Below, in pieces: positions 1-9,088 of a stretch of DNA of 22,175 nucleotides. A program made the position numbers and the translations under genes. Numbering within the stretch: the stretch's first letter is position 1; each line of letters starts with the position of its first letter. The notes beneath the pieces were generated by a model. The model saw only the letters and a program-made list of their open reading frames with translations. It was not told the origin of the DNA and did no database searches. This stretch comes from a virus (Duplodnaviria; Heunggongvirae; Uroviricota; Caudoviricetes): the IMG/VR virus record IMGVR_UViG_2534682074_000009, one strand, 5' to 3'.

Positions 1-981
1 TTATAACGTCACTCCGCCTTTTAGTGGATTCAGAGCGACGGCATTTTGCAGATAGTCAGGCGCAAGGTGCGCATAGGCCATCGTCTGCTGAATGCTCGCA
101 TGTCCCAGAATCTGTTGCAGTGCGATTATATTGCCCCCATTCATCATGAAATGGCTTGCGAATGTATGCCGCAGGATGTGGGTTGCCTGATTGGGTGGTA
201 TATCAGGTTTCACTCTGCGTAAAATCCCGCAAAATTTCTCATAATCAACTTTGAATAATTTGGCGCTGGCCTCCTCTTTAACTTTTTTCTCCAGTTCCTC
301 AGAAATCGGCACGGTTCGCTTTTTACCGTTTTTGGTTTTCAGGAAGGTAACCCTGCAATTTGTAATCTGTGCTGGTTTTAGCGTGGCAACTTCCGTCCAT
401 CTTCCTCCGGTGCTCAGACATAAAAGCGCGACAAGTAAGTCATCACCAGCCAAAACATTTAACAGTTTTTCGATTTCTGCTTTTTCCAGGAACGTCATTT
501 CAGGGTTGGCCTCCGCCAGTGGCGGCAGTCCGTGAATTGGGTGTTGCCCGGAAAATTCATCCAATTGAATTAATTTTGTGAACATGCCGGATAATCGGTA
601 CATGTCACGGTTTATCGTTGCGGCACTGATACCATCACGTAGTCGCATGGAACGATAATCCATCAAAGCCCTTTTGCTCATCCTGCTCACTGGTATATCA
701 CCTATGCCGCTGATGGTTTTGAGTAGATGATTAAACTCTTTTGTTCCATGCTCGTGGTTTTGCCCGTGATATTTCCACCAGATGTCCAGCAACTCACTCA
801 AAGTCCGGCGGTCTGCTCGCTGGCCTCCCCATTCTTTCTGACTGGCATTGGCGATTGTGTATCGCTCAAATGCTAGTGCTTCAGCTTTTCTTTCGAATTT
901 CCTGCGGATGCGTTTTCCGTCGCGACCGCGAGGTCTAATGTCCACTTCATAGCGACCATCATCGAGCTTCTTAATTGCCAT
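1..981 (-). CDS. int: Tyrosine site-specific integrase (P2 Int-like)
   Basis: Stop codon is at 1-3 on the reverse strand. C-terminal region carries tyrosine-recombinase signatures (HILRHTFASHF ... LGHASIQQTMAYAHL). N-terminus MAIKKLDDGRYEVDIRP resembles P2 Int as I recall it. Start at 981 is preferred because GGAGGG lies 7 nt upstream; the six-frame ORF extends to 1011 but has no SD there. Confidence 0.9.
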   Translation of the reverse strand: MAIKKLDDGRYEVDIRPRGRDGKRIRRKFERKAEALAFERYTIANASQKEWGGQRADRRTLSELLDIWWKYHGQNHEHGTKEFNHLLKTISGIGDIPVSRMSKRALMDYRSMRLRDGISAATINRDMYRLSGMFTKLIQLDEFSGQHPIHGLPPLAEANPEMTFLEKAEIEKLLNVLAGDDLLVALLCLSTGGRWTEVATLKPAQITNCRVTFLKTKNGKKRTVPISEELEKKVKEEASAKLFKVDYEKFCGILRRVKPDIPPNQATHILRHTFASHFMMNGGNIIALQQILGHASIQQTMAYAHLAPDYLQNAVALNPLKGGVTL

Positions 982-1050
982 AAGAAAGCCCTCCGGCGCT
1001 GTATTCACCATCTTGGTAGCAAATGGTGAAAATGTAATCTTTATATAGAG

Positions 1051-1344
1051 TTAGCCAATCCTTTTCGCGGAGTGGTTGGACTCTGTTGACTCTGGCCCAA
1101 TGTGCGCGAGAGCCGGTGCGATTTGTCCTGCGTCCGGCGCGGTTTTATCTGTCATAAGCCATAGAGCATATTTTTGGAATGTGGGATGCATAGTGATTTT
1201 TAGCAAAGCTGTGCCACCGGGTTCAAAGTTTCCTCCTTCATATTTTTTAAGTGTGCTTAGCGGTAACTCTATGATTTCACAGAATTTTGATTGGCTTAGC
1301 CCTTCAGCCTCACGCAAGGCCTTAATCTTTTCGCTTAATTTCAT
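1051..1344 (-). CDS. C: Immunity repressor (P2 C-like, HTH)
   Basis: 97 aa, immediately upstream of int on the same strand and divergent from cox. The C-terminal segment GQIAPALAH matches the P2 C repressor as I remember it; the N-terminal half has an HTH-like character. Confidence 0.8.
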   Translation of the reverse strand: MKLSEKIKALREAEGLSQSKFCEIIELPLSTLKKYEGGNFEPGGTALLKITMHPTFQKYALWLMTDKTAPDAGQIAPALAHIGPESTESNHSAKRIG

Positions 1345-1403
1345 TTGACATGGTGCCTATATAGGGACTAAATTCCCTCAAAACTGGAACCTATATAGGT
1401 TCC
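1345..1403. promoter_or_regulatory. Genetic-switch region: candidate early promoter Pe with two copies of a palindromic operator
   Basis: TTGACA at 1345-1350 with TAAATT about 18 bp downstream (1369-1374). The perfect palindrome CCTATATAGG occurs twice (1356-1365 and 1390-1399) flanking the putative -10; the second copy extends to GGAACCTATATAGGTTCC (1386-1403). Confidence 0.5.
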
Positions 1404-1480
1404 ATTGATTTGAGAATAAACCAGCATCTAAACGGTTTTGAGTGGTTTAGAAAGGGCTGGATCCTATGAGGGTACCATAT

Positions 1481-1753
1481 ATGGACGCTGAAAATTATGT
1501 GATTCAGTATCCGCTTGATGCGGTTCATGTGGATAAATTTGCTGATTTATTAGGGAAGCCAAAGACAGCCGTCAGTGAAATGGTGAAGGCAAATAAATTA
1601 CCAATTATTGAATTGCGTGATCCTTGCAAACCGAAGGCTCGTGCCGGTGAAAAATGGGTTTTCATTCCTGAGTTTAATCGCGCTGTACGTGAGGCGTTTT
1701 ATAACCGACCGGTTGAACAGCGTGATGCATGGCTTTTGTGGATGGGGTTGTGA
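1481..1753 (+). CDS. cox: Cox-like excisionase / switch regulator
   Basis: About 90 aa, first gene rightward of the switch. Motifs PIIELRDP ... GEKWVFIPEFN ... RDAWLLWMGL parallel P2 Cox as I recall it. GAGGG lies 8 nt upstream of the ATG at 1481; the alternative ATG at 1466 has poorer SD spacing. Confidence 0.8.
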   Translation: MDAENYVIQYPLDAVHVDKFADLLGKPKTAVSEMVKANKLPIIELRDPCKPKARAGEKWVFIPEFNRAVREAFYNRPVEQRDAWLLWMGL

Positions 1754-5775: not shown

Positions 5776-6033
5776 GTAAAAATACAGCGTGATTTTATAT
5801 GTCTTTGAATGGATTATGCGAAGCACCTCTAAGGTAGATGAGGAGCAATAGCGTGTTGAATCAGAAGGCTAAATTGTATTGAATCGTTAGCATGTAATTG
5901 AAGGCAGCTATTTGATTCGAGTCATAAAAGAGCATCTATTTCGGTTAATAAAACCATTGCGAGTGACTTTATGTCGAAGCATAATTCATCTCGAGCGAAG
6001 TCTTGCTAGTCTTTCATCGGATTGATGACGGGC

Positions 6034-6067
6034 GCAAAAAAACCACCCTGGCAGGTGGTTTTTTTGT
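6034..6067. terminator. Bidirectional intrinsic terminator
   Basis: Seven A (6036-6042), stem ACCACCCTG / CAGGTGGT, seven T (6059-6065). Can terminate plus-strand transcripts leaving A and the minus-strand mini-ORF transcript. Confidence 0.55.
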
Positions 6068-6077
6068 TTGAAGCATA

Positions 6078-6191
6078 CTAAAGAAAAATACTTACATGGA
6101 TATTACTGACGTTTACTGACAAACCACTCGGACTACCATATGGATAGCCAAAGAGGGCCAGAACGAGAATGCAGTAATAGCACTTCTTCAT
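6078..6191 (-). CDS. Candidate 37-aa hydrophobic small protein (MKKCYYCILVLALFGYPYGSPSGLSVNVSNIHVSIFL)
   Basis: Absent from the ORF track because it is short. Perfect AGGAGG 4 nt upstream of the ATG (reverse complement of 6196-6201); stop at 6078-6080 is directly followed on the minus strand by the 6034-6067 terminator. Hydrophobic N-terminal half. Confidence 0.3.
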   Translation of the reverse strand: MKKCYYCILVLALFGYPYGSPSGLSVNVSNIHVSIFL

Positions 6192-6847
6192 ATCGCCTCC
6201 TGTAAGCAGAGGGCAATTTCCGCCGATATATGCGCTTCTAAGGCGGAGTGACTATTGAGCGAAGTCTTGCCCTGAAATAATGCTCTGTTTAAACGCAAAG
6301 TGATCTGGCATATCACCGAACAGAGGACCTGAACAACACAACATATAGTATGTCGTTGTTTCTGGTTGCATTTTATGTTGTGTAATACTGGTTTTGCATC
6401 AAGGATGTTTGAGCTTTTTTTGATATAGCTCAAAGTAAAAAGCAGAGACTACGGATGATAAGGTCTTGAAAGCAATGTAAATTTTTTAAAGTTGTGAGTG
6501 GCTAGAAATGCACAGTTTCAATATGGCGGATTTAAACAAGTAATTAAAAATAGCGACATAAATTCAAATAAAATCATTAAGTTGCGTTTTCTGTGGAAAC
6601 TTCGGTGACTCTGAAATTTTCTTTTAGTGTCGCTGAGGTTTAACAACTCGCTGCGCAAGTAGTTAGTGTTTTTTTAATTCAATATTCTGATTTATAAGGT
6701 TTTTTATAAATCGTGGGCTGGTTGCGCGTATTCATCTCGTGTTATCAGCAAAGATAAGCTCTATATGCAGAACTGAATGCATATATGATGTCGAAAATGT
6801 TATGGGAAAACGTGGATTAGTGTTATAGTAATGGCTGAAAAACAGCC

Positions 6848-6907
6848 TTGACATAAAATAACAATTGTGATATGGCTGTGCATACTTAACTTTTTTAACG
6901 TAGGAGG
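6848..6907 (+). promoter_or_regulatory. Candidate sigma70 promoter and RBS for the metallopeptidase gene
   Basis: Consensus -35 TTGACA (6848-6853), 17-bp spacer, weak -10 TATGGC (6871-6876); AGGAGG (6902-6907) 5 nt before ATG 6913. Confidence 0.35.
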
Positions 6908-6912
6908 CAACC

Positions 6913-7398
6913 ATGAGCTATGCAGCTAAAAAACTGCTTGACCGCTATTGGGATCGCCGACTACCTGTCGATCCGTTTAAGCTTGCTAAAGCGTGGGGTG
7001 CTCGTGTTGAAGCACTTGAGGAATCGGCTTATAACAACGATGGGTTAAGCGGTCTGGCTGTCATCAAAAAGGGTGTCCATAGGATTTATTTTGATTCTAG
7101 TGAACATTCTAATCGTCAACGTTTTACTGTTGCACACGAGTTAGGTCATCATGTGCTGGGGCATACCCAGGACGGAGAGTACCATCGGGATAATGTCGGG
7201 AATTATTCAACAGGTGCTCGTGATTACCGTGAGGTTGAAGCAAACAAGTTTGCTGCTGAGTTGTTAATGCCTGAGTCTGCTATACGTCAATTGGTATCCA
7301 GAGAAGGTATTGATAGCACTTTGAGATTAGCAAGCATCTTTAATGTATCAGAAGCCGCTATGCATTGGCGCTTAAAGAGCTTAGGAATGGCTTATTAA
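6913..7398 (+). CDS. ImmA/IrrE-family (COG2856 / DUF955-like) zinc metallopeptidase, stand-alone
   Basis: 161 aa. HEXXH motif in FTVAHELGHHVLGH and the downstream EANKFAAELLMP signature typical of this family. Strong SD. No adjacent XRE/HTH partner ORF is visible. Confidence 0.8.
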   Translation: MSYAAKKLLDRYWDRRLPVDPFKLAKAWGARVEALEESAYNNDGLSGLAVIKKGVHRIYFDSSEHSNRQRFTVAHELGHHVLGHTQDGEYHRDNVGNYSTGARDYREVEANKFAAELLMPESAIRQLVSREGIDSTLRLASIFNVSEAAMHWRLKSLGMAY

Positions 7399-7425
7399 TT
7401 AGCCTTTAACTTTTAACCTGTTTAA

Positions 7426-7464
7426 AATCACCTTTACGTTTGTACATGTAAGGGTGATTTTTTT
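7426..7464 (+). terminator. Intrinsic terminator between the peptidase and membrane-protein ORFs
   Basis: 11-bp stem AATCACCTTTA / TAAGGGTGATT (one G-U pair), loop containing palindrome TACATGTA, then seven T (7458-7464) abutting ATG 7465. Confidence 0.5.
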
Positions 7465-8064
7465 ATGGCTGATATTGATTTATCTGGACAGTCCCCAGAG
7501 CAAGGAACCACTCCTAAGGGCGATTTAGATCCTGATATCCTTATAAGGCGAGATAGACGGGATGGTATAGAGCGTAGAAGTATGCGATTAGTGCTCTCTG
7601 CCGTTGTGCTTTGTTTTGCTTGTACATTTCTATGGCAGGGGCTTAACTTTGCTTTGGCTGTTGGAAATGGCTTGCTGGAAGCGAAAAGCAGTATTGCCGC
7701 AGCGATAACACAAAAAGTAGATACACAAACTTGTGTTTCAGCAGAAAAATGTTCTGCTTTATCTTCGGATCCGAAGATGGCTGATGAGAGGATAACACCA
7801 TCTTCAGACACTAATAAAGTTAGAAAATCTATTTCTGGTTTATCCACCGATTGGTTATCGGCCAGTTCTCTAATAGCTATTGTTGCATTCATCCTTGGTG
7901 TGGGTTTAACTTTGCTTTTGACTCTTCTTAAATCAGCATTTCAACACCCGACAGATAAAGACTTTAGAACAAAGTCGACATCTAATACTATTGAGTTGGC
8001 CACGCCAATCAGTGAATTAATAATTGGTGTTCTGAATATAATTAAAGACAAACTATCTAAGTAA
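7465..8064 (+). CDS. Predicted small membrane protein with two hydrophobic helices
   Basis: 199-codon ORF in AT-rich DNA. Two ~22-residue hydrophobic segments (LVLSAVVLCFACTFLWQGLNFALAV and LIAIVAFILGVGLTLLLTLL). Start uncertain (weak SD; internal Met at 7582 possible). Followed by the 8107-8139 terminator. Confidence 0.45.
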   Translation: MADIDLSGQSPEQGTTPKGDLDPDILIRRDRRDGIERRSMRLVLSAVVLCFACTFLWQGLNFALAVGNGLLEAKSSIAAAITQKVDTQTCVSAEKCSALSSDPKMADERITPSSDTNKVRKSISGLSTDWLSASSLIAIVAFILGVGLTLLLTLLKSAFQHPTDKDFRTKSTSNTIELATPISELIIGVLNIIKDKLSK

Positions 8065-8106
8065 AGCATTAGTTGTGATTTTTTATTGGTTTTAGTGATA
8101 ATACAT

Positions 8107-8139
8107 CTCCAGTACTTATTGTTACTGGAGAGTATTTTT
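8107..8139 (+). terminator. Intrinsic terminator in the convergent gap
   Basis: Stem CTCCAGTA / TACTGGAG (8107-8114 / 8123-8130), 8-nt loop, then agtattttt. Sits between the plus-strand membrane ORF and the stop of the minus-strand 313-aa gene. Confidence 0.45.
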
Positions 8140-8146
8140 AGTCGTT

Positions 8147-9088
8147 TTATATTTTTAATGTTAGTGAATGATATTCACGAGAGTTCACGTTCGATGTGAT
8201 GTAATCGGGGGCGTTAACACCAAGAATCGCAACGAGTAATCGGCAAATTAAAGCCTGCATTTGTTGTAATATGTCATCTCCATATTGATAATTGTTAATA
8301 GTGGTAAAGCCAAGTGGTTGACCATGAAACATAGCTTCATGAAAGTTTTCATTGCGGATGTTTGTAATGTTTTTTTTGCCTGTAACCCATGATGGTCGTG
8401 GTATTCCATAAGTTTTGCAGATCCACTTCAAGCGCCTGGAGTGATTTAGAGTCTTTTCTGTACACTTGTTCTTTTCTGCCCATGTTAAAGCAAAGCAACT
8501 ATCCAGTGCCATATAAAGATACTGGAATTTTTCGAAGCTAAGGTATTGTGGGTTTTGGGATAAAAATAGTGCATGCACTATTGCTGCTATATTTATTGGT
8601 GCGTGTTTGGTTTTTGTCTCGCTAGACATGTATTTGAGTGCTAATTCTATAACCTCTTTTTCAGAGCACTTGACCAGAATAAAGTCAGTTAATTTGCTGG
8701 GTTTTATTGGGGTTGCGTCTAAAAAACCGGCATCAGTAGTTGTTAATCTTATCCCTTTGAAAAAAGACAGACACCACACAGCAAAATTGAGAGTTTCTAG
8801 TGAAGATGTATTTTTTAATTTTAGTGAGTGTGTTTTGGGTAAACCAAATACTCGTTGGCTAAAAGGCATTGTGGATATGCCTCCATTGAGGTTATATACT
8901 TCTTGGTTTCCTGGGTATATCCAACCGTTAATAACATTTCTGTGATTGTTTATAAGATTTGTTTTTTCCGCTAGACCGGGTAAAGTAAGTAAAGAAAAAT
9001 CATCAGTTTCAACGTTAACTTCTACTGGATAGTATCCAAACTCAGCTTCAATATCATTGGATTGCTGTTCGTCAACTTTACCTTGCAT
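8147..9088 (-). CDS. Hypothetical 313-aa cargo protein; possible HEPN-like (R-x4-H) domain
   Basis: Long uninterrupted ORF in AT-rich DNA; GGAG 6 nt upstream of the ATG. Same orientation and position relative to cos that tin/old occupy in P2. Single motif R245-N-E-N-F-H250 in a predicted helical C-terminal half. No family confidently recognised. Confidence 0.7.
   Translation of the reverse strand: MQGKVDEQQSNDIEAEFGYYPVEVNVETDDFSLLTLPGLAEKTNLINNHRNVINGWIYPGNQEVYNLNGGISTMPFSQRVFGLPKTHSLKLKNTSSLETLNFAVWCLSFFKGIRLTTTDAGFLDATPIKPSKLTDFILVKCSEKEVIELALKYMSSETKTKHAPINIAAIVHALFLSQNPQYLSFEKFQYLYMALDSCFALTWAEKNKCTEKTLNHSRRLKWICKTYGIPRPSWVTGKKNITNIRNENFHEAMFHGQPLGFTTINNYQYGDDILQQMQALICRLLVAILGVNAPDYITSNVNSREYHSLTLKI

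Follow-up and report, generated by a model that had tools for sequence, protein, structure and literature searches.

By 2007, operators of the P2-type C/Cox lysis-lysogeny switch had been located only in P2, P2 Hy dis and Wphi (PMC1904268). The P2 half-sites are 8 bp long (GTTTAGAT) and lie around the -10 with a centre-to-centre distance of 22 bp (PMC1904268; features of AF063097), those of P2 Hy dis are 8 bp long, 26 bp apart and placed around the -35, and those of Wphi are 10 bp long, 34 bp apart and again placed around the -10 (PMC1904268). The Wphi half-sites were defined by mutagenesis, EMSA and SPR, and repression stayed when one half-site was mutated and was abolished when each carried a mutation (PMC1904263, PMC1904268). 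P2 C forms a symmetric dimer that holds its recognition helices 26 A from each other, as do the palindrome-binding P22 c2 and 434 repressors, and one dimer per half-site has already been proposed for it (PMC2995052). C proteins at least 95% identical are assigned to the same immunity group, and the Yersinia phage L-413C has the same attachment core as Wphi (PMC3448106). A literature search that excluded Karlsson et al. 2006 and Garcia et al. 2008 found no footprint, EMSA or reporter assay of L-413C-type operators.

The window analyzed here, a 22,175-bp stretch of prophage DNA, carries a switch of this family. Its int-C genes on the minus strand and its cox-orf78-B-A early genes on the plus strand follow the P2 family arrangement; a C homologue is present, int follows C, Cox opens the rightward operon, and two repeated operator half-sites (1356-1365 and 1390-1399) span the -10 of Pe. 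The features of the locus are as follows.

1-1011, minus strand: int, 336 aa, second gene of the leftward lysogenic operon; an ORF whose homologue is annotated as integrase in L-413C, Wphi and FSL SP-004
1051-1344, minus strand: C, immunity repressor, 97 aa, HTH_3; identified by ORF, Pfam and a phmmer match to P2 C
1345-1350, plus strand: -35 hexamer of Pe, TTGACA, at the same place as the annotated P2 Pe -35 and the Wphi Pe promoter feature
1353-1368, unstranded: O1, GTG-CCTATATAGG-GAC = GTGCCTATATAGGGAC, a 16-bp dyad with 7/8 pairs and a perfect 10-bp core at 1356-1365
1369-1374, plus strand: -10 hexamer of Pe, TAAATT, from a consensus scan, with an 18-nt spacer from the -35
1372-1417, unstranded: extended imperfect dyad centred on O2, 24-nt arms, 75% complementary
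1385-1404, unstranded: O2, TGGAACCTATATAGGTTCCA, palindromic over 20 bp with no mismatch, core 1390-1399, spanning about +6 to +25 of Pe
1418-1465, unstranded: cox-proximal half of the spacer, with the inverted repeat TCTAAAC (1427-1433) / GTTTAGA (1445-1451)
1466-1753, plus strand: cox, Phage_Cox family (PF10743, E = 1.2e-23)
1469-1477, minus strand: putative extended -10 of Pc, TGgTACCCT, from alignment with the Wphi Pc promoter feature in AJ245959

The two palindromes are very probably the O1 and O2 operators of the prophage's own C protein, in a P2-type C/Cox lysis-lysogeny switch of the L-413C immunity type. The sequence CCTATATAGG occurs at exactly two places in the window, 1356-1365 and 1390-1399, around the TAAATT at 1369-1374, just as the sequence-only reading had it in describing a repeat that flanks a putative -10. 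No further copy exists in the 22,175 bp with one mismatch allowed, and with two mismatches allowed there is one extra site in the window, at 6223, which is at chance level. A chance origin of the pair was ruled out by dinucleotide-preserving shuffles, none of 100 having at least two matches (mean 0.13). No third, distal operator of the kind known from phage 186 was found across the 22 kb. The same reading had placed a consensus TTGACA beside the C start codon, and the hexamer at 1345-1350 indeed abuts it, the codon being read as CAT on the plus strand at 1342-1344. It had also called the operators perfect 10-bp palindromes; both cores are present, but the symmetric units are larger, 20 bp for O2 and 16 bp for O1.

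Pe matches the sigma-70 consensus at 10 of 12 positions and is the sole promoter-like site that the consensus scan returned between 1000 and 1800. From where the Wphi Pe feature ends in AJ245959, its transcript is predicted to start near 1380. O1 lies in the -35/-10 spacer of Pe, the 10-bp core of O2 lies about +11 to +20 downstream of the predicted start, and the centres of the two sites are 34 bp, or about three helical turns, apart. The leftward promoter Pc was not picked up by the scan, and its placement follows from Wphi homology alone. From that position, the leftward transcript would start near 1462 and a putative convergent overlap with Pe of about 80 nt would result. The start of cox itself is ambiguous: the longest ORF begins at 1466 (95 aa), whereas most relatives are annotated from the ATG at 1481 (90 aa), and the putative Pc -10 falls between the two candidate starts.

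The operator architecture is, at the sequence level, the Wphi layout with a different sequence, because site length, 34-bp spacing and alignment all match Wphi. In the Wphi record (L001), TATTGGTGAC occurs at 1771-1780 and 1805-1814 and begins 6 nt past TTGACA; the window sites begin 5 nt past the hexamer and align column for column with the Wphi half-sites. That P2 C uses short direct repeats, as the sequence-only reading had it, is borne out by the two copies of GTTTAGAT 22 bp apart (AF063097; PMC1904268). The contrast it drew between palindromes and direct repeats is less sharp than proposed, and the family rule is unbroken, because a repeated palindrome is also a direct repeat.

The C protein of the window matches the P2 C protein (PDB 2XCJ/2L49) with E = 1.9e-21 over residues 3-97 (phmmer). 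The dissimilarity had been expected to lie in the N-terminal half, and it does: this half is 30% identical to P2 C (16/53), and the C-terminal half is 57% identical (25/44). Among the five residues proposed for base reading in P2 C (PMC2995052), four differ in the window protein (Y31L, S35K, Y36K and R41N) and T33 is kept; compared with Wphi C, two of the same five positions differ. Overall identity is 55.7% with Wphi C and 43% with P2 C. With the C proteins of L-413C, R18C, FSL SP-004 and vB_YpM_50 it is 100%, and the 721-bp switch segment is 99.0-99.9% identical to those of L-413C, R18C, HQ103, vB_YpM_50, FSL SP-004, P24B2, P2_AC1 and the 'P2' prophage of Escherichia coli O157:H43 T22. The spacer differs from that of L-413C only at the private changes of L-413C and one common polymorphism. 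By sequence, the immunity type is thus that of L-413C, R18C and HQ103, which is common and already sequenced, and the switch is not new in kind.

A separation of this immunity group from both P2 and Wphi is well supported by these comparisons. The sequence-only reading had suggested a group other than P2 and had proposed aligning C and the operators with those of P2 and Wphi; in that alignment neither C nor the operators proved identical to P2, the base-reading residues are changed and the P2 operator pair is absent. Assignment to P2 class I fails on the 43% identity and on the lack of a direct GTTTAGAT pair, the locus having just an inverted 7-mer pair at 1427-1451. Assignment to Wphi class III fails on the 55.7% identity and on the site sequence, which is not TATTGGTGAC, with the geometry identical. 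Palindromy, together with the different N-terminal half of C, had been taken as a sign of another group; the group does differ, but its class is set by the sequences of site and recognition helix and not by symmetry.

Of 5,426 complete E. coli genomes, 420 (about 8%) carry the module, in each as one chromosomal copy and never as two. A scan with one genome per species returned 36 stretches with the operator pair, nearly all in unrelated organisms, and the pair stood beside a C homologue only in Escherichia sp. MOD1-EC7003, which has the identical module, and in one Providencia prophage. The latter (Providencia alcalifaciens JAOQNJ010000001, L087, 7286-7340) is P2-like, with a C protein 62% identical to that of the window and TCCTATATAGGA twice, 32 bp apart around Pe. 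In Pectobacterium brasiliense (L076, 3250-3298), TGCCTATATAGGCA and TTCCTATATAGGCAAC are spaced by 39 bp immediately upstream of an ORF; the 8-kb locus yielded no homologue of C or Cox, and its sites look like operators of an unrelated system that have this core. C proteins with no more than 62-64% identity to that of the window (Providencia L087; L057) also use the 10-bp core, and therefore the operator flanks (TGGAAC... in the window) presumably contribute to specificity.

Elsewhere in the window, a moron region at 5776-9088 separates gene A from the late genes. Its first part, 5776-6912 (about 1.1 kb), has no ORF longer than 81 aa, and it is followed by a Peptidase_M78/CapP-like ORF (6913-7398, plus strand) and by two ORFs with no Pfam or PADLOC match (7465-8064, plus strand, 199 aa; 8147-9088, minus strand, 313 aa). 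The region may be defence-hotspot cargo.

The operator sites vary with the C protein and not with cox. In 12 further C classes (59-86% identical) among the IMG/VR relatives, a site pair stands at the same two positions; in these relatives, the left half of the spacer varies with the C protein and the right half follows the Cox type. L054 and L060 agree fully in Cox and in the right half of the spacer, yet their C proteins and their O1/O2 differ. The right half, 1418-1465, is probably a Cox/Pc control region because it is common to loci with different C classes and the same Cox type. Within its inverted repeat at 1427-1451, GTTTAGAA matches 7 of the 8 positions of the P2 C half-site GTTTAGAT, likely by coincidence.

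Recognition helices and operator cores are paired across the classes. Helices of the KKY/SKY type go with CCTAnnTAGG cores, and those of the KNY type (Wphi-like) go with GTGAC-type arms. The subgroup with the helix [L/R/I]STLxKYExG has CCTAnnTAGG-type palindromes (TCCTATTTAGGA / GCCTATATAGGC, TCCTATATAGGA, CTCCTAATTAGGAG), and L041, L048, L057 and L063 have palindromes of their own. In the closest class, L039 (C 86% identical), TGGAACCCATATAG and CTATATGGGTTCCA match at 14 of 14 positions only if one is inverted and at 11 of 14 when read directly. Among the Wphi-like classes (helix L[G/S]T[L/V]KNYE.GH), Wphi and L054 have direct arms, and L046/P37 (TTAATGAC / GTCATTAA) and L049 (CTTGAGAC / GTCTAAAG) have inverted ones; Wphi O1, written as GTAACCTA|TTGGTGAC, is itself palindromic at 6 of 8 positions. 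Around the O2 axis, 12 of 13 classes retain G(-8) and C(+8), and symmetry prevails at positions 7-16. The extended O2 dyad comprises 15-17 bp on each side of the axis and has a counterpart, with compensatory changes, in most of the 13 C classes; it reaches beyond the span expected of a small helix-turn-helix dimer. The sites of the sister classes are thus palindromic, inverted or direct, a pattern that argues for one symmetric C dimer per dyad.

Two lytic phages of this immunity type have lost both operators in their intact form. Over 1040-1760, R18C differs from the window only at 1364 (G>T, O1), 1390 (C>T, O2) and a common A/G polymorphism at 1426, and L-413C differs at 1356 (C>A, O1), 1373 (in the -10), 1402 (C>A, O2), 1426 and 1632, of which 1356, 1373, 1402 and 1632 are private to it. 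Both phages retain a C protein identical to that of the window. Private changes were judged against 35 prophage-type IMG/VR copies over 454-1944. In this interval two of the six private changes of R18C lie within the 20 core bases (P about 0.003), and three of the four of L-413C lie in the 60-bp Pe/operator segment (P about 2.5e-4). Both 16-mers (GNNCCTATATAGGNNC) are intact in all 35 prophage-type copies and in seven of nine sequenced isolates, the two exceptions being exactly R18C and L-413C. The natural substitutions affect positions -5 and +4 in O1, and -5 and +8 in O2 (position 1402 is the C at +8 from the O2 axis), where major-groove contact by a helix-turn-helix dimer would be expected.

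By analogy with Wphi, paired lesions in O1 and O2 are the pattern that a virulent mutant of this architecture should show. R18C was described as virulent and lytic, with no reason given, in a paper that reports no lysogeny or immunity-insensitivity test (PMC6823313), and the temperate L-413 is the parent of the clear-plaque mutant L-413C (PMC3448106), although Garcia et al. 2008 may have assigned the cause of its clear plaques otherwise. The operator changes could in principle reflect relaxed drift in phages that were already lytic, as both also carry changes in int; the concentration of changes in the operator sites speaks against this. The four private substitutions in the int gene of R18C (506, 631, 724 and 815), which occur in none of the 35 prophage copies, fit a lineage that has been lytic for some time.

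HQ103 (L072, MZ420230) is damaged elsewhere. Its only difference from the prophage over 1040-1760 is a 7-bp deletion at 1179-1185, a frameshift in C, and its sites are intact. It forms clear plaques at 37 C and is blocked by a full-length 294-bp C homologue in trans (PMC10321612). The clear plaques were ascribed to the truncated repressor and to a 'mutation of promoter Pc' (PMC10321612); unlike that account, the Pe/Pc/operator DNA of HQ103 is the wild type of its class. Among phages of the Wphi class, the lytic Y. pestis isolates vB_YpM_22, 476A, GMS190 and PhiR44_1 show 2-15 scattered differences from Wphi, including C coding changes, and neither confirm nor weaken the approach through natural mutants.

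The sites could also be C operators read as in the P2 model, with the 10-mer serving as a direct-repeat half-site, one monomer in specific contact and the palindromy incidental. The repeats of P2, P2 Hy dis and Wphi are direct and non-palindromic, all seven classes seem direct (PMC2995052, PMC1904268), and the window sites match directly at 10 of 10 positions (12 of 14 with flanks); a repeated palindrome, moreover, cannot tell single-monomer from symmetric reading. We nevertheless consider this model improbable, as O2 is perfect over 20 bp, twice the repeat length, and five related classes retain palindromic cores despite sequence change. Inverted pairs such as those of L046 and L049, the 14/14 match of L039 that appears only on inversion, and the G(-8)/C(+8) symmetry retained by all but one of 13 classes likewise speak for symmetric reading. 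An RNA or transcription element, such as a stem-loop in the Pe 5' region or the Pc leader, a pause or a terminator between convergent promoters, would give O2 and the 1372-1417 dyad their main role and make O1 secondary. The consensus scan marks 1385-1404 as terminator-like, both strands fold (-16.4 and -18.4 kcal/mol, z = -4.6), and a dyad of 15-17 bp per side with compensatory changes across the classes exceeds the reach of a small helix-turn-helix dimer. The z-scores are weightless, however, as any palindrome folds on both strands; G-T and A-C mismatches number 14 and 13, which is no strand-specific signature, and the left arm contains the predicted Pe start (about 1380). No Rfam family matched, the search of 1000-1800 returning only a meaningless GIR1 match (E = 0.95). 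The O1 copy in the promoter spacer and the paired substitutions of R18C and L-413C would be left unexplained, so an element acting mainly through RNA is very unlikely, and an RNA-level role may be an additional function of the O2 dyad.

Least credible of all, with hardly any probability left to it, is binding of the palindromes by Cox, H-NS or IHF instead of C. In HQ103, H-NS shifts both the Pe and the Pc fragment and keeps Pe silent at 21 C (PMC10321612), the palindromes have an AT-rich TATATA core, and a recognition sequence for Wphi-type Cox is not evident in the literature. Yet the sites change with the C class and differ between L054 and L060, whose Cox and right spacer half are the same; host factors would not require class-specific sequences, and the sites stand where the Wphi C half-sites were mapped. 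Because H-NS binds the HQ103 Pe/Pc fragments (PMC10321612), more than one protein may use the AT-rich cores.

Recognition by C is what the sites, their position relative to Pe, the homology with Wphi, the co-variation with C and not cox, and the loss in two lytic derivatives point to, all of which are present in the sequence. The published block of HQ103, whose sites are the same, by a C protein of this class in trans (PMC10321612) is indirect evidence in the same direction. In the proposed mechanism, C would be made as a symmetric helix-turn-helix dimer and would bind with one dimer per dyad. The dimer at O1 would fill the -35/-10 spacer of Pe, that at O2 would cover about +6 to +25, and the two, 34 bp apart, would cooperate to shut off Pe and keep cox and the replication genes off. 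A superinfecting phage with the same sites would be silenced likewise. P2 (with GTTTAGAT sites) and Wphi (with TATTGGTGAC sites) would escape recognition, making the prophage heteroimmune to both. We would extend the symmetric reading to the whole Wphi/L-413C branch only as a proposition with even chances of being right or wrong: every operator would be a 16-20-bp dyad that seats a single symmetric dimer, whether an arrangement is direct, inverted or palindromic would depend on which arms are strong and which weak, and R18C and L-413C would be natural double-operator (vir-type) mutants. New here are the match to the Wphi layout, the larger dyads, the paired R18C and L-413C lesions and the comparative evidence for symmetric reading.

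The prophage is predicted to exclude L-413C-type phages with intact operators and not to exclude P2, Wphi or the operator mutants R18C and L-413C. The paired lesions offer a simple sequence explanation for the lytic growth of the diagnostic plague phage L-413C and of the 'virulent' R18C. They also suggest a quick check by which P2-like isolates for therapy or diagnostics can be sorted into operator mutants and temperate phages, namely whether both palindromes and C are intact. Fully symmetric sites give a handle on how a symmetric C dimer reads supposedly asymmetric direct repeats. If the dyad model is true, the perfect 20-bp O2 would lend itself to the first structure of a repressor of this family on DNA, and the hallmark of 'non-palindromic direct repeats' would become one of three arrangements, direct, inverted and fully palindromic. 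The 10-bp core shared with the Providencia prophage raises the question of cross-recognition between distinct C lineages.

Among the known systems, the phages closest to the window are L-413C, R18C, HQ103, FSL SP-004, vB_YpM_50, P24B2 and T22 'P2', which have the same immunity module; compared with R18C and L-413C, each with one substitution per operator, and with HQ103 and its C deletion, the window has the unmutated prophage form. Wphi (class III) shares with it a 97-aa C protein, a TTGACA abutting the C start, 10-bp sites 34 bp apart that flank the -10, an O2 within a longer dyad, and a similar Cox type and Pc region, and the switch DNA is about 70% identical. It differs in its sites, which are TATTGGTGAC there and CCTATATAGG here, each window site being itself palindromic, in the recognition helix (LGTVKNYESGH there, LSTLKKYEGGN here) and in the Pe spacer (17 nt there, 18 nt here), and the window spacer is without 34 bp upstream of cox. 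P2 (class I; 2XCJ) is alike in the family and fold of C, in two repeated sites flanking the Pe -10 and in the Pe/Pc and C/Cox logic, and the backbone-contact residues R13, Y37 and E38 and the GQIAPALAH surface motif of its C protein are conserved in the window; its sites, in contrast, are 8 bp long, non-palindromic (GTTTAGAT) and 22 bp apart. The 434 repressor, P22 c2 and C.Esp1396I are small helix-turn-helix (XRE-type) dimers that resemble P2 C in structure and recognize 14-20-bp dyads, and C.Esp1396I also has two repeated palindromes with one dimer on each (PMC2995052), although these are spaced by 15 bp and those of the window by 34 bp. At the family level examined here these three are not homologous, and the likeness would be one of mechanism only, with a symmetric dimer seated on each dyad.
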